8,325 bases of DNA from a virus (taxonomy: Duplodnaviria > Heunggongvirae > Uroviricota > Caudoviricetes): the IMG/VR virus record IMGVR_UViG_2609460221_000006, positions 1 through 8,325 of that record. One strand, 5' to 3'. Under the pieces are notes generated by a model. The model did no database searches and was not told where the DNA came from. It saw nothing but the letters and a program-made list of their open reading frames with translations. Made by a program: the position numbers and the translations under genes. Positions 1 to 8,325 of this stretch are shown one piece after another (position 1 is the stretch's first letter; the number at the start of each line of letters is the position of its first letter).

Positions 1-907
1 GTGCATCATCTAACGGGATTTCATCGGTCATAATGGCAGATTGCGCTTCGCGTGATTGCTTAAGCCACCATTTAATGGTGTCCCGATCAATGACTCCGCC
101 AGCAGTTTCCAGATCGATAGTCTTACTAAATTCCGGTCCCATATCTCCGGTTTGCGGATCGAAAAATATTGCACCTATTGAGATAATCGGGGCATCTGGA
201 TTTTTTCCCATGGTTTCAAGGTCGATCATTAGATGGTCACACGTCCCGCTGGTGGATGTGCCTTTATGATGACCGTTCACCTTAACTGAGTGATCTGTCG
301 CCTCGCCAGTTTCACTATCGCTATCGTGATGCTGATTGCCGCCAGGGTTCTCCTTGTGTGGATGTTCAGTGCCTTCCATTTCCTCCGGATCATTTTCCTG
401 AACTTCAACCTGATTCTCTTCATTGAATGTTTCCTGGTATGTTGCGTCGCCCATCACCGCGCCACAATCAGGGCAGTTGCCGCCGCCGGTCTGACCGCAG
501 GCGGTGCAGATCTTTTCCGGTTCCTGTTGCACTACTGGTTCAGGTTGTTTCGTTTCTGGCTCGTTTTGTAACGCATTTGGGCTGTTTTGTTCCGCTTTCT
601 GGCCGTTCTGTTCCGTTTCTTGCTGGTTCTGGTTCACAGAATCGCGGGTTTCCATCCCCTTGACCCATTTCGGATCATTCGGGTCGCTAATCCCTGCAAC
701 AAATTCTCCGCGAGAGGCCGCAAGCAACTTATCGGCGTCAGGCTGGCTGATATTGGCTGCCTGCATAATTTTGTTTACTTCGTCAGCGGTAACTTTTACC
801 TGATTAACCGGATCTATCTGTGCCTGAGTATCCAGCGATTGCGTGTCCTGGCGATGTTCAGTTGTATTCGGCTCCATTGCTTCAGTCGTTGCCTGTTCAT
901 CTGCCAT
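1..907 (-). CDS. recE: RecE-family exonuclease VIII, downstream portion (partial, runs off the window; separated from the N-terminal ORF by a frameshift)
   Basis: Minus-strand frame open from ATG 907 to position 1, translating [30 protein letters not shown]...[30 protein letters not shown]...[16 protein letters not shown]... The [10 protein letters not shown] / [13 protein letters not shown] blocks match what I recall of the middle of E. coli RecE. The same frame is open upstream across the stop of the 936-2144 ORF. Confidence 0.6.
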
Positions 908-935
908 TGCGTCAGACGGTTGTGATTTTTCCTCA

Positions 936-2144
936 TTAATTTTTTTCTTCTTCTGTTTCGCGTTCAGCAGCCAGTTCGCGGTTAACTTCTTCCAGGATAT
1001 CTTTTTCCGGTGTATGTCGTGCAGCAGCGAGAGTTTCCTCGGTAGGGTTCTCGTGATCAGTTTCCGTCAAATAGGCGTTGATATACCCCTGAAGGCGTCC
1101 CGGGTAGTGATAAAATTCAGGGTGTGCGCTTCGGATAAGTGCAAAAATAGCGGCGCGGGAATAATCCAGGATACCCGGGATTGCGCGAAGTGCTGCGGAC
1201 CATTCTTTGAACGGACTTTCTTTCTTCCGGACGACTTCTTTTGCGCGACGATAAACGCTGCCCGGAATTTCATAAATATTAAAATCCATCGGAAGTGTGG
1301 CCGCTGCAATCTCCACATCCAGCGTATCGAAGGTGTGTACTAAATTCGGATTGCGATCGGTTTTGTTCCCTCCACCGGCATTAGCACCGGAAGCCGTGCG
1401 GGTGATGCGTGAAACACGATTTCCTTTCATCCACTCTTTTGTCAGCAGACCGCGATCGGTGTAGTCAGCGCCCAGGTATGCTTCGAAAAAAGCAGTCATC
1501 AGTCCCAGGTCTGAATTACCAGGATTAGGGAAAACTTTGTCCGTGTCACGAACCAGTTTGTGGAGATCGCGAATTTCCAGCGGTTCGAGTTGCGCTGCTT
1601 TATTTGAGATGGCCAGCGCGGTAACGGCGGGAAGTTTTTCATCCTGTGCGTTATGTAATGTGCGCAGTTCGTCCCGCGAAACGTGTGTGATCGGTTTTTC
1701 GCTGCCGTGCTGTGCCAGCCATCGAACAGGCAGAATCTGACCTGAAACCGGCAGGAGCATGTTCTCCTCAATCTCAGCCATGTCTTCGCCGTTGACGTTG
1801 GTATTGTCAGTGCTGGCTGGTTTATCCTGAACAGAGGGCGAGGGCGCGATAAGTACCATTGTGATACCATCTTCACCGCCCTTTTCGTATCGGTTGCAGA
1901 ATTCGGTATCAAACACGCCTTCCGGAGGAAGGTCATTCACAACGGGTAAATGGACGCGAACAGGTTTTTTAAAATCCTCTTTGTCAAATCCGGCATCGTC
2001 CATTGCGACAACACCGCGTGATATTGCAACCGATAATTTTTTTGCTGTGCGCCAGTAAAAACCGCCTTTAATTCCAAGACGTTTTCTGATTTTGTCATTT
2101 TTGGCTTCGTAATATAGTGCAATTTCTTCTTTATCAGTGCTCAT
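936..2144 (-). CDS. recE: RecE-family exonuclease VIII, N-terminal 402 aa (ends at TAA 936-938, probably prematurely)
   Basis: 402-aa ORF with blocks [111 protein letters not shown], recalled as the RecE N-terminal region. GAGG Shine-Dalgarno 8 nt upstream of ATG 2144. Confidence 0.8.
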
Positions 2145-2221
2145 TGATAAACCTCATTACAGATTTAAGGGTGAACAAATCCCTGCCATTGCTGGCATAT
2201 AAAAATGAAACCGGATATTAA

Positions 2222-2425
2222 TTACGGTGCTGTTTTAAGCCCCGCCGGGATTTCGTTATTGTCCATGTGAATAACTTTATCGACCGGATAACAGTTGCCG
2301 GGAATTTTCTGTTCCGCTGCGGCAGCCATGCATTCTTTCATTGAGTTGTACATGCCGGTGATTGCATCAAGCGACTCACCAGTATTGAGATGTACAGTCA
2401 GAATGAGTACGAATAATGTGTTCAT
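2222..2425 (-). CDS. Small hydrophobic protein, 67 aa, YdfD-like by position (tentative)
   Basis: ATG at 2425 overlaps the dicB stop (ATGA coupling); GGAGA Shine-Dalgarno upstream. N-terminal hydrophobic segment MNTLFVLILTVHL. Its position directly after dicB corresponds to ydfD in the Qin dicB operon; sequence identity to YdfD is not verified. Confidence 0.5.
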   Translation of the reverse strand: MNTLFVLILTVHLNTGESLDAITGMYNSMKECMAAAAEQKIPGNCYPVDKVIHMDNNEIPAGLKTAP

Positions 2426-2610
2426 CGCCACTCTCCGAAAATACCGAGTTTAAGAAGGGCAATTCTGGAGAGTATGGAATTGTCATTCAGCAGGTAGGGT
2501 TCATATTTTCTCATATTGATTGCATCCTCGGTGAAATCCCTGTTACTGAGCAGAACACCAATATTAAAGCACCCGTCAGACGTATTAACGTTTGGTAGTG
2601 ACGTTTCCAT
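2422..2610 (-). CDS. dicB: Cell-division inhibitor DicB homologue, 62 aa
   Basis: Translation METSLPNVNTSDGCFNIGVLLSNRDFTEDAINMRKYEPYLL... matches the recalled DicB signature (LPNVNTSEGCFEIGV...FTEDAINKRK) at the same 62-aa length. GAGGA Shine-Dalgarno 7 nt upstream of ATG 2610; lies just downstream of DicF as in Qin. The ORF track's longer 97-aa version (to 2715) has no support for its N-terminal extension. Confidence 0.8.
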   Translation of the reverse strand: METSLPNVNTSDGCFNIGVLLSNRDFTEDAINMRKYEPYLLNDNSILSRIALLKLGIFGEWR

Positions 2611-2779
2611 TATCGCGTCCTCAACAATGAATTTTGTGATGCGGTGCCTGGTGCCTCCAGGTGACGTTAACCAGTTAACAATTAACGCCGGATACAGAGA
2701 ATCCACCCATAACACTGTTTTTGGTTTTAACTGTTCCGCGTGCGCTCAGCCGCATTCACCACATCACAAAATTCACTTT

Positions 2780-2822
2780 AAAAAGGGCGGCAGAGCAGTC
2801 ACGGAGTAAAACTGATACCGCC
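2780..2822 (-). terminator. Intrinsic terminator hairpin forming the 3' end of DicF
   Basis: Minus strand GGCGGTATCAG...CTGCTCTGCCGCC stem-loop followed by a run of 5 U (plus-strand A 2780-2784). Probably leaky, since dicB lies downstream in the same operon. Confidence 0.6.
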
Positions 2823-2837
2823 AAAAGTCACCAGAAA
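2785..2837 (-). ncRNA. dicF: DicF small RNA (Hfq-dependent ftsZ-targeting sRNA processed from the dicB operon transcript)
   Basis: Minus-strand sequence TTTCTGGTGACTTTTGGCGGTATCAGTTTTACTCCGTGACTGCTCTGCCGCCC followed by TTTTT, matching the 53-nt DicF as I recall it apart from one possible substitution. Ends in a GGCGG...CCGCC hairpin plus U-tract. The 5' end is processed, so it is approximate. Confidence 0.85.
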
Positions 2838-3172
2838 ATTGATAACAGAGGGCGTTGCAGCGGAGTTGTCACTTAAGCGTATGGTCAACCTGACAACCCG
2901 GTGTCCTCAACGGGGGAAGGAATAACCCCGCCATACTTACCGCCGCGCCATTTCGCGGATTGCCACAACCGGAAGCGCACGGTCGACGAAAATTTAACGA
3001 CAGGCTATCTATGAACCAGCTACCTCGCCGTGCGCTTTCGCGTTATGGTCTGACTTTTCAGGGAAATATCCTTTCAGTAAACTGTCAGTGCCGGATGCTC
3101 ACCCGTGTCCGGCGCACGCACTCCACCTCACCCGTGGAGAACTCCTTAATCACCAACCCTCAGGAGGGTGAA

Positions 3173-3448
3173 ATGTCGACTGAAAATGATGAAATCATTA
3201 ACTCCCTGATACGCCAGATTAATAATTTTGATAAAGCATTGCAACATGCTGCGGCGCGTAGTGATATAACTCTTTTAGCAATTTCATTTCTTGCATCTGT
3301 TATGGATAAAAATGAAGTCGTACGACAGAGTCTTGTTGATTATATCGACTCGCTTCAACCCGGCACTTTCAATCATGAGAGCTTCAATCATGAGAAAGAG
3401 CATGTTAAGTCTGTAATTAATTCTCTTATTTTGAATCAAAAGAATTAA
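3173..3448 (+). CDS. Hypothetical protein, 91 aa, in an AT-rich island (unknown function)
   Basis: Strong Shine-Dalgarno CAGGAGGGTGAA directly before ATG 3173. The in-frame upstream part of the ORF-track call (2960-3172) is GC-rich with no RBS and is rejected. Base composition drops sharply at 3173. Predicted mildly acidic and helical, with an FNHES-FNHE tandem repeat; no motif I recognise. Confidence 0.6.
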   Translation: MSTENDEIINSLIRQINNFDKALQHAAARSDITLLAISFLASVMDKNEVVRQSLVDYIDSLQPGTFNHESFNHEKEHVKSVINSLILNQKN

Positions 3449-3746
3449 TGCTTTTTGTTGCAAAGTAATTTTCAAGGGGTTCTATTCGAATCCCTTTCTT
3501 TTTCATTAACAAGCCAAACCCCTTATCAATGATGTCCATTAGATCCAGGAAGTATTTTTCATGTAAATCCTGGTTATCAGAGAGCTGCTTCTCTTCGTAC
3601 AGCCCGATAAAGGCTCGGCGTACGTTACCGGATATATTGTCGATGGTTTCTTTTTCTACGGTACTCAGGTCAAGAGTCGCCAGTTGAGAGCGAACCACAT
3701 TCGATGCCATTTCCTGGAATGGTACTGGTAAATCTTTAAATTCCAT
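3426..3746 (-). CDS. Hypothetical protein, 106 aa, in the AT-rich island (unknown function)
   Basis: ATG 3746 is preceded by GAGGT at good spacing. An alternative ATG at 3758 overlaps the upstream gene's stop (TGATG) and gives 110 aa. Co-oriented with the dicB operon, convergent with 3173-3448 and overlapping its 3' end by 23 bp. Acidic, helical, no recognisable catalytic motif. Confidence 0.6.
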   Translation of the reverse strand: MEFKDLPVPFQEMASNVVRSQLATLDLSTVEKETIDNISGNVRRAFIGLYEEKQLSDNQDLHEKYFLDLMDIIDKGFGLLMKKKGIRIEPLENYFATKSINSFDSK

Positions 3747-3757
3747 CGTCAACCTCA

Positions 3758-3910
3758 TCAGTCAGTGTTTCTGGTTAACCAGCGACGCGCGCCAGCTTCA
3801 GTTTTAAACGTTTTGCTTCTGGTATATGTCATCGCGGTAAACGTGCCGTCCTGGTTGGGAAACACGCCGCATACCAGAGATTCGTTGTTGCCAAGCTCGA
3901 TAGTATCCAT
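3758..3910 (-). CDS. Small protein, 50 aa, YdfA-like (DUF1391-like, tentative); first gene of the leftward operon
   Basis: ATG 3910 has a GAGGT Shine-Dalgarno 5 nt upstream. The longest ORF starts at 3991 (77 aa) but with a weaker RBS. Product MDTIELGNNESLVCGVFPNQDGTFTAMTYTRSKTFKTEAGARRWL resembles, from memory, the ~51-aa YdfA that heads the Qin dicB operon. Confidence 0.5.
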   Translation of the reverse strand: MDTIELGNNESLVCGVFPNQDGTFTAMTYTRSKTFKTEAGARRWLTRNTD

Positions 3911-4091
3911 GCTGACCTCATTTCCCCTTAACGCCGGGGTAGCGGAACAAAAACCTGCTGCATAGTTATTAAAGTTGAACCCTGCCGTCATGTTCTTACG
4001 CCTCGGGCTGGCTACTTAACCCCTGACCACTGCCGGGTAACTCGAAGTATTGCCTGGCGTTCTGTGGGGCGGGGTGGGTTGATGAATGAAC

Positions 4092-4131
4092 AATACCACT
4101 ACTATTTAATTATGTAAATAGCAGTGCTATT
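4092..4131. promoter_or_regulatory. Leftward (PL-like) operator region: two copies of a 16-bp AAATAG-N4-G(C/G)TATT site in opposite orientations
   Basis: 4116-4131 is AAATAGCAGTGCTATT on the plus strand; 4092-4107 reads AAATAGTAGTGGTATT on the minus strand. Together they form a 30-bp near-palindrome (4097-4126). The same motif occurs twice in the repressor/cro intergenic region. Lies upstream of the leftward operon, with TTTACA / TATTGT-like hexamers nearby on the minus strand. Confidence 0.45.
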
Positions 4132-4142
4132 ATCGTGGCAAG

Positions 4143-4164
4143 AAAAAAAACCACCCGAAGGTGG
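4143..4164 (-). terminator. Rho-independent terminator ending the paaR2-paaA2-parE2 operon
   Basis: Minus strand CCACC-TTCG-GGTGG hairpin immediately followed by 8 U (plus-strand A 4143-4150), 17 nt downstream of the parE stop. Confidence 0.7.
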
Positions 4165-4180
4165 TTGTTGACAGGAAGGA

Positions 4181-4471
4181 TTAACAGGTTTTGTTTGGAT
4201 ACTGTCTTCGTGAGTGAACTACATTTACGATCTCGATGTTAGATGCTGTTACTCGGTAAAGTATTATGTAGTTAGGATGAGTCACTATCTCACGAAGACT
4301 TGGAACTCTTTCGCTCGGTGGGTACAGATAAGGGTGTTCAGTAAGTGACAAAACTGATGTTTCAATGCGTATTTTTAGTCTACGTGCAGCGGGAGGGTTT
4401 TCCTTAGCAATATAGGCTACGATCTGACGTAAATCATCACGTGCAGAAGGTAGCCATAAAATGGGCAGCAT
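4181..4471 (-). CDS. parE2: ParE/RelE-family type II toxin, 96 aa (ParE2-like)
   Basis: Translation MLPILWLPSARDDLRQIVAYIAKENPPAARRL...REIVTHPNYIILYRV...IEIVNVVHSRR shows the ParE/RelE pattern. Start overlaps the stop of the upstream antitoxin ORF, a typical toxin-antitoxin arrangement. Confidence 0.85.
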   Translation of the reverse strand: MLPILWLPSARDDLRQIVAYIAKENPPAARRLKIRIETSVLSLTEHPYLYPPSERVPSLREIVTHPNYIILYRVTASNIEIVNVVHSRRQYPNKTC

Positions 4472-4662
4472 TACTCACTCCTGTTCGTTGCAGCTAATTG
4501 AGCAATAAGGTTTTCCATTTCAGCCATTACTTCGTCATGTGGAATTGCAGGACGGGGATCTGAGAGGCTTGCTGCCACTTTGGTTCGCAACCATTCGTTA
4601 TAGCTGTTTTCTTGTTCGACTGTTTCAAATTCAGAAATTATCGGGGAAAGGGCTGTACTCAT
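4471..4662 (-). CDS. paaA2: Small antitoxin, 63 aa (PaaA2-like), partner of ParE2
   Basis: 63-aa acidic ORF immediately upstream of, and coupled to, the ParE gene. GAGGAGG Shine-Dalgarno 7 nt before ATG 4662. Size and context fit the PaaA2 antitoxin of the paaR2-paaA2-parE2 module described in E. coli O157:H7 prophages; the name is by synteny and recall. Confidence 0.7.
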   Translation of the reverse strand: MSTALSPIISEFETVEQENSYNEWLRTKVAASLSDPRPAIPHDEVMAEMENLIAQLAATNRSE

Positions 4663-4679
4663 GTTTTTACCTCCTCAGA

Positions 4680-5181
4680 TTAGGCGCGACGACCCTTTTG
4701 CGCAGCTAGCCATCGCGCAACGATTTCTTCAATTGATTCTTTTTTCTCCTTCATTTCCTTAAGCATTTTCTCTTTATCTTCTTTGGGGAAAGCCCTGAAC
4801 GTCTGGAGCAAATCCCGCTCCATGGGGTCTATATTAAACGGAAGTTCGTTTTCCGATTGTTCCATATCTGCAGATATAGTGACAACATTGTCCTCCCCAG
4901 ATTCTTGGGGATACATCCTTACAATTTGTAACAACTCGGCCATATCTGGTCTGATTGACTCGGGAGGAACTTGCAGCAACCCTGCGAACTTGATAACAGC
5001 CTCAAGATTTAAAGGTGTCTGACCATTTAGATAATGGCTTACAGCTCCCTGTGTCGAAAATCCCAGAATTTCTGCCGCACGCTCTTGGGTTAACCCTAGT
5101 TGAATTTTTTTTCGCCGTCCAGATTTCTTTCAGTCTCTGGGCGGCTTGCAGGTCGATCTCTGACAGGGATTTTCTTTTCAT
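4680..5181 (-). pseudogene. paaR2: Lambda cI-like HTH repressor (PaaR2-like), reading frame broken in an A8 run
   Basis: ATG 5181 with GAAGG Shine-Dalgarno gives MKRKSLSEIDLQAAQRLKEIWTAKK, then the frame is lost in the A8 run (plus-strand T 5105-5112). The -1 frame continues (KK)IQLGLTQERAAEILGFSTQGAVSHYLNGQTPLNLEAVIKFAGLLQVPPESIRPDM... to TAA 4680. The joined N-terminus closely resembles the lambda CI N-terminal domain ([27 protein letters not shown]...). The intact-frame tail is the 4680-4979 ORF in the track. Confidence 0.75.
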
Positions 5182-5288
5182 ACCTTCAATTCTAATAAGA
5201 TTATTAATCTCTTTGAAATAGTGATGCTATTTACTTTTAAAAATAACAATGCTATTAATGATCGTGATGACATCACATGAGGTGAACA
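5182..5288. promoter_or_regulatory. Divergent promoter/operator region between the cI-like and cro-like genes (PRM/PR analogue)
   Basis: Two direct copies of the 16-bp motif, AAATAGTGATGCTATT (5216-5231) and AAATAACAATGCTATT (5241-5256), 25 bp centre to centre. A 13-bp perfect palindrome GTGATGACATCAC (5264-5276) and TAATAA-GA-TTATTA (5193-5206). Candidate rightward promoter TTTACT-N17-TATTAA. GAGGTG Shine-Dalgarno before ATG 5289. Confidence 0.55.
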
Positions 5289-5564
5289 ATGAATCTTGGA
5301 GAATATTTGCATCATTCCGGTATAACTCAGAAGCATTTTGCTGAAATTGTTGGGGTAACCCAAGGGATGGTAAGCCATGTCATTACCGGACGGGCGAAAC
5401 TTACGGGGAAAAAAATTTTACGCTGGTGCGAAGCAACAGGCTGGATAGTAACTCCGCACGAGATTGATGGCAGTACTTATCCCAACCCAACCGACGGCTT
5501 ACCTGTCGAGTATCAGGCTAACACACAACCAGAGGCGGGGGTGATTCATGAAAATCAAGCATGA
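5289..5564 (+). CDS. ydaS: Cro-like HTH DNA-binding protein, 91 aa (YdaS-like)
   Basis: HTH segment ITQKHFAEIVGVTQGMVSHVITG. Divergent from the cI-like gene across an operator-rich spacer; Shine-Dalgarno GAGGTG at 5279-5284. Confidence 0.8.
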   Translation: MNLGEYLHHSGITQKHFAEIVGVTQGMVSHVITGRAKLTGKKILRWCEATGWIVTPHEIDGSTYPNPTDGLPVEYQANTQPEAGVIHENQA

Positions 5565-5584
5565 ACACATCCGCATGGCAATGA

Positions 5585-5974
5585 ATGCCTGGGCGCATCC
5601 GGACGGCGAAAAAAGTACCGGCTGCGAAAATTACCAAAGCGTATTTCGAGCTGGGAATGACGTTCCCGGAACTGTATGACGACAGCCATCCGGAAGCCCT
5701 GGCCCGTAATACCCAGAAAATTTTCCGTTGGCTGGATAAAGACACCCCTGATGCTGTTGAAAAAATGCAGGCTCTGTTACCGGCGATCGAAAAGGCGATG
5801 CCGCCTTTGCTGGTGGCCCGTATGCGCAGCCACAGTTCTGAATATTACCGTGAGATCGTCGAACGGAGGGATCGGCTGGTGAAGGATGTCGATGATTTTG
5901 TTGCGTCAGCGGTTGTTTTGTATGACCAGATGAATCGCGGCGGCCCGGCAGGGAATGCTGTGGTGATGCACTAA
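5585..5974 (+). CDS. ydaT: YdaT-like (CII-analogue) protein; longest intact frame shown, native start probably ATG 5548 with a frameshift in an A6 run
   Basis: The 129-aa ORF from ATG 5585 has no Shine-Dalgarno and begins right after an in-frame TGA. ATG 5548 has a strong GAGGCGGGGG RBS and overlaps the cro-like stop; it encodes MKIKHEHIRMAMNAWAHPDGEK and then leaves the frame at the A6 run 5609-5614. One A fewer would give a ~140-aa product, the size I recall for YdaT. The gene name is by synteny with Rac ydaS-ydaT. Confidence 0.6.
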   Translation: MPGRIRTAKKVPAAKITKAYFELGMTFPELYDDSHPEALARNTQKIFRWLDKDTPDAVEKMQALLPAIEKAMPPLLVARMRSHSSEYYREIVERRDRLVKDVDDFVASAVVLYDQMNRGGPAGNAVVMH

Positions 5975-5996
5975 AAGCACGGTGTTCGGGGGTTTT

Positions 5997-6959
5997 ATGA
6001 GCAGCAAGCTTCATGGTCTTGTCTGGGAAGGGTGCGCCTTCACCGGCATGATCTTATCCAGGGTGGCGGTTATGGCCCGTCTTGCAGACTACAGCAATGA
6101 CGAGGGCGTGTCATGGCCTGCCATTGAAACTATCCGGCGTCAGATCGGTGCAAGAAGTGAATCCACAGTGAAATCGGCTATTGCAGAACTGGCGAAAGAG
6201 GGCTGGCTGACGAAGGAAGAGCGTAAGGTCGGTGGGCGTAATGTAAGCAATATCTATCGGCTTAATGTGGAAAAACTCGAAGCAGCTGCGGCGGCGGCGC
6301 GTGAGTCATATAAACCGAAAAGAAAAATTAGCCCGGCAAAAAATGACCCGTTAACAGTTGACCCGTCAAATATTGCCCCCTCAACGGTTGACCCGTCAAA
6401 TTTTGATGGATCAACTGTTGATAAAAAACTGCCGATTAGGGGGGCGATGATTGACCCCGATCCGTCAGTATTAAAACCTGATCCGTCAGATAAAAGATCT
6501 TCTTGTCCGGACGCTTCGCAACCGGACCCGCAGACGGCTGAACAGGATTTTTTAACCCGACACCCTGACGCGGTTGTGTTCAGTGCGAAAAAACGCCAGT
6601 GGGGAAGTCAGGAAGATTTGGTGTGCGCACAGTGGATCTGGGGACGAATCGTGAGTCTTTACGAGCAGGCGGCCAGCTATGATGGCGAGATCACTAGACC
6701 GAAAGAACCCAACTGGACAGCATGGGCCAATGACGTTCGCACAATGCGGATGCTGGATGGCAGAACTCACAGACAAATTTGTGAAATGTTTGGGCGTCTC
6801 CAGCGGGATTCGTTCTGGGTAAAAAACATCATGAGTCCGGCAAAACTCCGGGAAAAATGGGATGAACTGGTTATCCGCCTGGGGCGTTCGCCTGCGCAGC
6901 GTTGCGTGAATCACATTTCTGAACCGGACACTGAAATACCGCCGGGATTCAGGGGGTGA
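5997..6959 (+). CDS. Replication initiator, lambda O analogue (YdaU-like), with origin iterons inside the gene
   Basis: 321-aa ORF from ATG 5997 (GGGGG upstream); GTG 5982 is an alternative start. N-terminal winged-helix-like region ...VSWPAIETIRRQIGARSESTVKSAIAELAKEGWL. The central coding region carries tandem DNA repeats that encode the repeated TVDPSN / DPS peptides. Sits between the cII-like gene and the DnaC-like loader. Confidence 0.7.
   Translation: MSSKLHGLVWEGCAFTGMILSRVAVMARLADYSNDEGVSWPAIETIRRQIGARSESTVKSAIAELAKEGWLTKEERKVGGRNVSNIYRLNVEKLEAAAAAARESYKPKRKISPAKNDPLTVDPSNIAPSTVDPSNFDGSTVDKKLPIRGAMIDPDPSVLKPDPSDKRSSCPDASQPDPQTAEQDFLTRHPDAVVFSAKKRQWGSQEDLVCAQWIWGRIVSLYEQAASYDGEITRPKEPNWTAWANDVRTMRMLDGRTHRQICEMFGRLQRDSFWVKNIMSPAKLREKWDELVIRLGRSPAQRCVNHISEPDTEIPPGFRG
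6356..6489. repeat. Iteron cluster: putative replication origin within the O-like gene
   Basis: AGTTGACCCGTCAAAT at 6356-6371 and GGTTGACCCGTCAAAT at 6386-6401 (each containing the inverted pair TTGAC/GTCAA), TGTTGATAAAAAA at 6417-6429, and GATCCGTCAG at 6458-6467 and 6480-6489. Iterons inside the initiator gene are the lambda ori arrangement. Confidence 0.55.
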
Positions 6960-6965
6960 CGTGTC

Positions 6966-7712
6966 ATGAAAAACATTGCGGCAGTTGGGGTTCTTGAACG
7001 TATTCGCAGACTTGCACCACAGGGGTCGGTTCCACCGTACCGGACGGTGGAGGAGTGGCGGGAATGGCAACTTGCTGAAGGACGAAAACGCAGCGAGGAG
7101 ATTAACCGCCAGAATCGCCAGTTGCGGGTGGAAAAAATCCTGAATCGTTCGGGCATCCAGCCTCTGCACAGCAAATGCTCGTTTGCAAATTATCAGGTGC
7201 AGAACGACGGGCAAAAATACGCGCTGAGCCAGGCCAAATCCATAGCTGACGAACTGATGACCGGGTGCACGAATTTTGTGTTCAGCGGTAAAACCGGCAC
7301 CGGGAAAAATCACCTTGCAGCGGCGATGGGCAACCGGCTGATGGTGAAGGGGCGCAGCGTGATTATCGTCACCGTGTCTGACGTCATGAGCGTGTTGCAT
7401 GACAGCTACGACAACGGCAAATCCGGGGAAAAATTTTTACAGGAGCTTTGCGGGGTTGATTTGCTGGTCCTGGATGAAATAGGCGTTCAGCGGGAGACGA
7501 AAAACGAGCAGGTGGTATTGCACCAGATAATTGATCGCCGGACAGCATCACTGTGCAGTGTCGGGATGTTAACAAACCTGAATCATGCCGCAATGAGTAC
7601 GCTTCTTGGTGAGAGGATTATGGACCGCATGACCATGAACGGTGGTCGATGGGTGACGTTTAACTGGGATAGCTGGCGTCCAAATGTCAGCAATATGAGG
7701 GTTGTGAAGTAA
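6966..7712 (+). CDS. ydaV: DnaC-like helicase loader / IstB-like AAA+ ATPase, 248 aa (YdaV-like)
   Basis: Walker A FSGKTGTGKNHLAAAMG and Walker B DLLVLDEIG. AGGGGG Shine-Dalgarno before ATG 6966, which follows the O-like stop by 6 nt. Confidence 0.85.
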   Translation: MKNIAAVGVLERIRRLAPQGSVPPYRTVEEWREWQLAEGRKRSEEINRQNRQLRVEKILNRSGIQPLHSKCSFANYQVQNDGQKYALSQAKSIADELMTGCTNFVFSGKTGTGKNHLAAAMGNRLMVKGRSVIIVTVSDVMSVLHDSYDNGKSGEKFLQELCGVDLLVLDEIGVQRETKNEQVVLHQIIDRRTASLCSVGMLTNLNHAAMSTLLGERIMDRMTMNGGRWVTFNWDSWRPNVSNMRVVK

Positions 7713-7733
7713 TTTTGTCCGGAGGAAATTTTA

Positions 7734-8325
7734 ATGGAAACCGTATCTGACGCACTGAAAGCACTGAAAAAAGCCTCTTCACATGTGGTGGCAGCTCGCC
7801 TTGGAATCAGTCGTGAAGAGGCTGTCAACGAGCTGTGGGAACTCAAAAGAAAAGGCGTCGTTGATAAAACTGGTCACACCTGGTTTCTGGCTGGCGAAGG
7901 TGAATCCCGGGTAACCGAAGAGCGGCCAGTAAAATCTGAAGCACAGGATATGCTGACCGGGGAGGTCGAACAAAAAGTTACCGCAGACATGATGATTGAG
8001 TTTATCGGTCAGGATGGGGCTAAAACGTGTGAGGAACTGGCGGGTAAGTTCAGTGTCAGTACTCGCAAGGTTGCTTCCACGCTGGCGGTGGTAACCGCAA
8101 CGGGGCGGCTGGCACGCGTTAATCAGAACGGTAAATTTCGTTACTGCATGCCGGGCGATAATTTACCAGCAGAGCCGAAAGCCGCGCTGGTAACGGAAAG
8201 TGATGGTAAGGCCTTTCCTCAGCCAGCAGGTGCTGCGTTACCAGTCCGGGAAGCCGCAACACAGGAAGAAATTAAAACAGAAACTGTGGCGGACATTGTG
8301 CAGCCGTTGCCATCGTTTACCGAAA
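7734..8325 (+). CDS. Hypothetical prophage protein, partial (runs off the right edge), with two winged-helix-like segments
   Basis: GGAGGA Shine-Dalgarno 7 nt before ATG 7734; frame open to the window end (197 codons), so it is absent from the ORF track. Translation METVSDALKALKKASSHVVAARLGISREEAVNELWELKRKGVVDK...CEELAGKFSVSTRKVASTLAVVTATGRLARV. Corresponds in position to the gene after ydaV in Rac. Confidence 0.6.
   Translation, partial: METVSDALKALKKASSHVVAARLGISREEAVNELWELKRKGVVDKTGHTWFLAGEGESRVTEERPVKSEAQDMLTGEVEQKVTADMMIEFIGQDGAKTCEELAGKFSVSTRKVASTLAVVTATGRLARVNQNGKFRYCMPGDNLPAEPKAALVTESDGKAFPQPAGAALPVREAATQEEIKTETVADIVQPLPSFTE

Follow-up and report, generated by a model that had tools for sequence, protein, structure and literature searches.

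Immunity repressors of Rac- and CP-933P-like prophages

The closest described relative of the locus considered here is found in prophage CP-933P of Escherichia coli O157:H7, where the repressor PaaR2 heads an operon with paaA2 and parE2 and faces a divergent pair of genes, ydaS and ydaT (Jurenas et al. 2021, PMC8630535). In this system, it has been reported that PaaR2 oligomerises (as an octamer) and binds DNA (PMC8630535). Tests with reporter plasmids in K-12 further showed that the Cro-like protein YdaS represses the PL promoter ~100-fold, that about 90% of wild-type cells are YdaS-on already, and that ParE2 activity is detected in neither state; paaR2 stop mutants were studied as growing cultures (PMC8630535).

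Other examples are RacR of the Rac prophage and DicA of the Qin prophage in E. coli K-12, which have a like role, lie opposite genes of the ydaS/ydaT type and control an operon of the DicF/dicB type, and whose proteins and operators differ from those described below. Two reports describe loss of RacR as lethal through expression of YdaS and YdaT (PMC5700377, PMC5700373). A further point of reference is lambda cI, which shares with the present locus the position and orientation of the repressor gene within the immunity region and the paired operators on both sides of it. While cI is followed by rexAB in lambda, the repressor gene described here is followed by a toxin-antitoxin pair.

The DNA analysed is a stretch of 8,325 nucleotides, positions 1 to 8,325 of the IMG/VR virus record IMGVR_UViG_2609460221_000006, which is referred to below as the window. 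In a first-pass annotation made from the letters of the window, a cI-like repressor gene had been described as interrupted by a frameshift, and the origin of that frameshift is the main subject of the following sections.

Organization of the window and its regulatory sites

The window represents the early and immunity region of an E. coli lambdoid prophage that resembles Rac and CP-933P (Table 1). On the minus strand, the repressor gene (5181-4680) is followed by intact genes of the paaA2 and parE2 types, which is the gene order of paaR2-paaA2-parE2 modules, and further along the same strand lie DicF, dicB and an exonuclease gene. As in CP-933P, genes of the ydaS and ydaT types diverge from the repressor gene, and operator-like sites are repeated in the OR-like and PL-like regions. 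The module of which the repressor gene is part is therefore of a type already known.

The window is also a mosaic, with a join at about 2411-2420: positions 1-2420 match the prophage that strain 7/2 carries at its potC/integrase site (L003), and positions 2411-8325 match a different prophage, that of strain WP4-W18-ESBL-09 (L001). Coverage of the window by any one complete RefSeq E. coli genome is at most 86%, and no phage record covers it.

Table 1. Features of the window, with positions, strand and the observation on which each entry rests.
Feature	Position	Strand	Basis or remark
Exonuclease gene (YdfE/exonuclease VIII-like), frameshifted	1..2144	-	Extra A at 938-939 before T7 (940-946)
DUF1482 gene	between dicB and exonuclease gene	-	Gene order
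dicB, cell-division inhibitor gene	2422..2610	-	DNA identical to the gene annotated dicB in L001
DicF small RNA	2785..2836	-	Rfam RF00039, 75.8 bits, E 8e-16
DUF1391 gene	between PL-like promoter and DicF	-	Gene order
PL/OL-like region	4090..4131	-	Promoter TTTACA-17-TATTGT (4118..4090) overlaps AATACCACTACTATT (4092-4106), AATAGCAGTGCTATT (4117-4131)
Intrinsic terminator after parE2	4143..4166	-	Stem AACCACC-TTCG-GGTGGTT; T-tail 4143-4150 is T8, against T7 in relatives
parE2-type toxin gene, 96 aa, intact	4181..4471	-	Pfam ParE_toxin; 88% identical to O157:H7 ParE2
paaA2-type antitoxin gene, 63 aa, intact	4471..4662	-	Pfam PaaA2; 84% identical to O157:H7 PaaA2
Repressor codons 27-166 and stop	4680..5102	-	HTH helices 2-3, helices 4-5, disordered linker, two-helix PaaR2-like C-terminal tail
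59-aa ORF from the frameshift	5002..5181	-	First 26 codons are the true repressor N-terminus (N-terminal arm, helix 1), 33 out of frame
Extra-base site	5103..5104	-	Between codon 26 (AAT, 5106-5104) and codon 27 (CAA, 5102-5100); L001 comparison, A1, A3
A8 run, codons 24-26 (AAA AAA AAt)	5105..5112	-	Length equals that of intact alleles
PRM-like promoter TTCAAA-17-TAGAAT	5189..5217	-	Consensus scan; -10 end 7 nt before the ATG at 5181
OR-like region, two 15-bp palindromic operator-like sites	5217..5256	.	AATAGTGATGCTATT (5217-5231), AATAACAATGCTATT (5242-5256)
ydaS-like HTH gene (Cro analogue), 91 aa, intact	5289..5564	+	HTH_3
ydaT-like gene (CII analogue), frameshifted	5548..5974	+	A6 at 5609-5614, against A5 in relatives; YdaT_toxin domain
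Replication initiator gene	5982-6959	+	ORF/domain comparison
DnaC/IstB-like ATPase gene	6966-7712	+	ORF/domain comparison

The operator-like sites share the pattern AATANNNNTRCTATT, of which there are four in the window, confined to 4092-4131 and 5217-5256 and spaced 25 bp apart within each pair; since the pattern was derived from these same four sites, the count is descriptive. The corresponding repeats of CP-933P are of the GTTTAGTAA type (PMC8630535), and the difference between the two patterns suggests a distinct immunity specificity, that is, a heteroimmune variant of the module. As judged from its match to the consensus, the putative PRM-like promoter is spaced from the start codon in a way that fits a leaderless repressor mRNA, as has been reported for both cI and PaaR2 (PMC8630535).

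By analogy with PaaR2 and cI, the intact repressor would bind the paired 15-bp palindromes of the OR-like and OL-like regions. Two promoters would be expected to be repressed by it, the rightward one of ydaS-ydaT and the leftward one that lies ahead of DicF and dicB, and its gene would share a transcript with paaA2 and parE2.

A lambda cI-like repressor with a PaaR2-like tail

The interrupted gene is the cI-analogous repressor of this Rac/CP-933P-like lambdoid prophage. The first-pass assignment to a cI-type repressor in a lambdoid immunity region agrees with its location, as the gene precedes paaA2-parE2 and shares its strand with the leftward DicF/dicB operon. In phmmer searches, the N-terminal 90 residues match the N-terminal domain of lambda cI (PDB 1lmb, 7jvt; E about 1e-9), with ...KKNELGLSQ... 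of cI aligned with ...KKNQLGLTQ... of the repressor. The predicted fold agrees with this, as the AlphaFold model of the intact protein (mean pLDDT 77; 84-94 in the N-terminal domain) has helices at residues 8-24, 32-39, 45-51, 59-69 and 78-89, the five-helix HTH arrangement of lambda cI, followed by a disordered linker (90-118) and then two C-terminal helices. When this model was compared with the PDB by Foldseek, the best matches were N-terminal domains of lambda cI, with TM scores of 0.85-0.93 (target-normalised), rmsd of 1.1-1.5 Å and 35-39% identity.

While lambda cI carries a C-terminal LexA/S24 domain for autocleavage and oligomerisation, the repressor of the window ends in a two-helix tail of ~50 residues. 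Pfam matches on the intact protein are limited to HTH_3 (residues 26-74) and HTH_31, and no S24 peptidase domain, which would be responsible for LexA-type self-cleavage, was found in the repressor either by Pfam or in the model, where the linker and the two helices stand in this place. Because the S24 domain is missing, RecA-mediated induction of the window's prophage would not be expected; PaaR2 likewise has no S24 peptidase domain, and absence of RecA-mediated induction has been reported for it (PMC8630535).

For the comparison with PaaR2, a 133-aa reference from NZ_CP064167.1 was used, with the true CP-933P locus taken from H91/L005; another O157:H7 hit (H19/L004) was rejected as the CP-933P locus, as it belongs to another prophage, one without the toxin-antitoxin pair. 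In BLASTP, residues 91-166 of the repressor align with PaaR2 47-133 at 47% identity (E 8e-23), and the DNA-binding domains are left unaligned. The two proteins differ in length (166 against 133 aa) and in their N-terminal DNA-binding domains, which do not align, and share homologous C-terminal regions of ~87 residues. The gene had earlier been treated as an allele of paaR2, which is not adequate, as the likeness to O157:H7 PaaR2 (47% identity) is confined to the last ~87 residues and the DNA-binding domain is lambda cI-like.

The protein is thus a cI-like DNA-binding domain (residues 1-89, five helices) joined by a linker to a short PaaR2-like helical tail, and looks like a heteroimmune relative of PaaR2 instead of an allele of it. 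The locus, in its intact form, likewise looks like a heteroimmune relative of the paaR2-paaA2-parE2 module, with its own set of operators and with a repressor that combines a cI-like domain and a PaaR2 tail.

A doubled base after the A8 run interrupts the repressor gene

In the window, codons 1-26 of the 166-aa repressor (5181-5104) and codons 27-166 (5102-4680) are out of frame with each other. Reading from the ATG at 5181 gives an ORF of 59 aa, which starts MKRKSLSEIDLQAAQRLKEIWTAKKN and continues with 33 out-of-frame residues, and the remainder of the repressor (QLGLTQERAAEILGFSTQGAVSHYLNG...RRA) is encoded in the other frame, with its stop at 4680-4682. Both parts are 100% identical in DNA to the intact 166-aa gene of NZ_AP022069.1 (L001; WP_000824162.1), which points to a disrupted gene and not to a chance pattern of ORFs. 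The PaaR2 ORF is whole, whereas the reading frame of the window's repressor is interrupted by the +1 insertion at 5103/5104, which we judge to be a probable artefact for the reasons given below.

Pairwise comparison with L001 and multiple alignments (A1, A3) locate the extra base exactly: where the intact allele has GCG-A8-T-CAA, the window has GCG-A8-TT-CAA. The inserted base is a T that follows the A8 run, seen on the plus strand as a change from 'A' to 'AA' at 5103-5104, before the T8 at 5105-5112 that corresponds to A8 on the minus strand of the repressor gene. In the first-pass annotation, a +1 frameshift had been placed at these positions and in these frames, which can be read directly from the sequence, and had been explained as a run one A too long, an A7 miscalled as A8. 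This part of the account fails, as A8 is the wild-type length and it is the neighbouring T that has been doubled; A7 as the wild-type length is ruled out by the L001 comparison together with alignments A1 and A3. The number of N-terminal codons shared with the intact protein (...AKKNQLGL..., compared with ...KKKNELGL... in lambda cI) is likewise 26 and not 25.

The break, which had been described as lying inside the HTH-coding region, falls between predicted helix 1 (8-24) and predicted helix 2 (32-39), where the Pfam HTH_3 match (26-74) has its N-terminal boundary. If the frameshift were real, the product would be without both HTH helices.

Distribution of the allele in public collections

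A search of 5426 complete RefSeq E. coli genomes gave 70 with the gene segment, none of them with the repressor allele of the window, and in 59 of the 60 genomes listed among these 70 carriers the gene has its in-frame length, the exception being a different insertion. No gene with the 59-aa product is recorded among 153 billion gene positions, nor is the 99-aa product on record in the gene collection. The exact 40-mer across the insertion site is absent from GTDB species representatives, from JGI metagenomes and from IMG/VR, in which the positive control, the 39-mer of the intact form, occurs in 25 contigs. The intact repressor protein (P0001) is encoded on at least 1000 public contigs. Comparison with the paaR2 alleles of related genomes, which had been proposed earlier as a check, places A8-TT in none of those searched and the intact A8-T frame in the nearest relatives. 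A second carrier appeared to be Z1323CEC0012 (H66/L002; also L011), on the basis of a 141-base match, and was rejected, as it has the normal A8-T together with a different T insertion upstream, GAGATTCGACC.

Other interruptions of the gene do occur. The 87-aa C-terminal fragment of the repressor is called as a gene of its own on 16 contigs, and the 10 places shown of these 16 comprise four with A7 (L009, L012, L016, L018), five with A9 (L010, L013, L014, L015, L017) and one with a normal A8; the A8-TT allele is in none of these frameshifted contigs. All four A7 contigs also share a deletion of one base in the A7 run of ydaS (A7 to A6), and one of them, L009 (CP164123.1, which lies outside the RefSeq complete-genome set), has only three differences from L001 in 10.3 kb, the two deletions and one mismatch. 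The A7 and A9 contigs could reflect systematic basecalling errors or real mutations at a hot spot, which for A7 would mean a doubly mutated lineage. Under either reading, the homopolymers concerned are trouble spots.

These length variants bear on the suggestion that the frameshift is real and partly bypassed, through RNA polymerase slippage at A8, in which part of the transcripts would lose one A, or through a +1 shift of the ribosome at AAA-AAA-AAT, either of which would supply a low and noisy level of full-length repressor reading ...AKKIQLGL...; in a broader version, the tract would be a mutational on/off switch of immunity. Removal of one A restores the full 166-aa ORF, and the N26I replacement that results would probably be tolerated, since residue 26 is variable among homologues of the repressor (N, T, P, S, A and K). 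Long A/T runs are established sites of slippage in E. coli, and tract lengths of A7, A8 and A9 are found among public contigs; A8, however, is at or under the length usually required for efficient slippage. Programmed recoding sites are conserved, whereas the frameshifted form was found in no relative: the 25 IMG/VR contigs with the intact 39-mer stand against 0 with the window allele, and the in-frame length prevails in the RefSeq genomes listed above. The run itself is not conserved, as alleles of ~94% identity read A7C (Lys-Lys-Thr) at the tract in the multiple alignment, and the other three insertions in the window, described below, are without any such rationale. We therefore regard bypass of a real frameshift as the least credible of the explanations weighed here. 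Because the run is not conserved in the alleles of ~94% identity, a contingency (phase-variable) tract was not adopted either. A related scheme, in which a real insertion at a recurrent hot spot (A7, A9, A8-TT) acts as a heritable switch to the YdaS-on state, with slippage on A8 giving a trickle of repressor, is very improbable.

Four single-base insertions and the origin of the frameshift

When the window is compared with its nearest relatives in each of the two parts of the mosaic, the insertion in the repressor gene proves to be one of four. Positions 2411-8325 differ from NZ_AP022069.1 (L001) by 0 substitutions and three 1-base insertions (4143, 5103 and 5609), and positions 1-2420 differ from NZ_CP023820.1 by 0 substitutions and one 1-base insertion (938), the same result being obtained with all twelve top-listed records. 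In each of the four, the plus strand has gained an A at or beside an A/T run. At 938, an A directly before T7 (940-946) is doubled, so that the exonuclease gene is split into an ORF of 402 aa (936-2144) and a remainder in the other frame. At 4143, A7 on the plus strand has become A8 in the non-coding tail of the parE2 terminator, and at 5609, A5 has become A6, which splits ydaT into ORFs of 43 and 129 aa in place of a protein of 141 aa. Three of the four insertions thus disrupt genes (exonuclease, repressor and ydaT) whose reading frames are uninterrupted in relatives. Three of the five A/T runs of at least 7 bases in the window are affected (P about 1e-6 if events are placed uniformly).

The insertions at 938 and 5103 are alike in that the flanking base has been doubled and the length of the run is unaltered, a product that polymerase slippage does not leave. 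The same product, in which the single base after a run is followed by an erroneous second copy of itself, has been described in MinION assemblies of the Kastor study (PMC12007338). The errors of that study, an example of the homopolymer-associated indels of long-read or flow-based bacterial assemblies, resemble those of the window in being single-base indels that are tied to A/T runs and disrupt genes found whole in relatives, and differ in that the MinION data contain mostly deletions, whereas all four events in the window are insertions (PMC12007338).

We infer that the frameshift in the repressor gene is probably an error of the source assembly, the insertion of one base by doubling of the T after A8, and we hold this with considerable confidence. 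Several single-base indels lie at or beside homopolymers in sequence that is otherwise identical to relatives, and the allele is absent from the independent assemblies searched, as would be expected of assembly errors. A sequencing error had also been preferred in the first-pass annotation, and this preference now has much better support in the four single-A insertions accompanied by zero substitutions. It is on these insertions, and not on the expected phenotype, that the call rests.

The phenotypic argument had been that loss of the repressor would derepress dicF/dicB and harm division, so that an error was the more economical explanation. The RacR precedent, as described in the reports cited above (PMC5700377, PMC5700373), is what gives this argument its basis. 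The argument is nevertheless weak, as the evidence from CP-933P runs contrary to it (PMC8630535): given the results obtained there, a true null need not derepress DicF/dicB.

The same evidence gives some room to the view that the insertion is a true mutation and that the repressor of a decaying, cryptic prophage is now a pseudogene. On this view, immunity would be locked in the state governed by the Cro-like YdaS, which would hold the PRM-like and PL-like promoters, and hence DicF/dicB, repressed, and low-level transcription of paaA2-parE2 would persist. In CP-933P, stop codons in paaR2 removed only a minority RAE2-on subpopulation, and YdaS provided the repression of PL noted above; real loss would thus be tolerated, a paaR2-null being compatible with growing cultures in that model (PMC8630535).

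Prophage genes commonly decay, and the breaks in the ydaT-like and exonuclease genes of the window would fit general decay; frameshifted versions of the repressor gene occur on 16 other contigs. The pattern of changes is what speaks against this view, since base substitutions normally outnumber indels, and four indels with no substitutions in 8.3 kb is unlike mutation; extrapolated, a density of four insertions per window would amount to thousands of frameshifts per genome. Moreover, in two of the four cases the base adjoining a run is doubled and the run is not lengthened, one insertion lies in a non-coding terminator tail, with no sign of selection on the pattern, and searches of public collections did not find the repressor allele. 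A true pseudogene is accordingly considered unlikely, although it is a better candidate than bypass or switching at the tract. If it were the correct reading, the strain would be a natural paaR2-null, usable to test whether YdaS alone silences DicF/dicB.

With an assembly error as the preferred explanation, pseudogene inferences drawn from the source assembly (a lost repressor, a lost CII analogue, a broken exonuclease) call for read-level confirmation. A point against an artefact is that the ydaT A6 site and the repressor tract, both frameshifted elsewhere too, could be hot spots of true mutation as well as of error.

As for the remaining insertions, A8 at the terminator tail occurs in one of the 30 loci that match at this site (IMG/VR contig L030), and the other 29 have A7. 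The ydaT allele with the exact flanks of the window was found in 0 of 12 matching loci. A frameshift to A6 in ydaT is also present in GCA_000529555.1 (L007) and in Logan SRR16060697 (L008), two unrelated assemblies whose prophages carry a different repressor, of the S24 type. A Logan contig of 1242 bases (L006, from SRR35867611) was rejected as a carrier of the exonuclease allele, as its sequence runs out immediately ahead of the insertion site and contains no stop codon. Its truncated product equals the 402-aa ORF of the window, which may reflect a branch of the assembly graph at the homopolymer or a coincidence.
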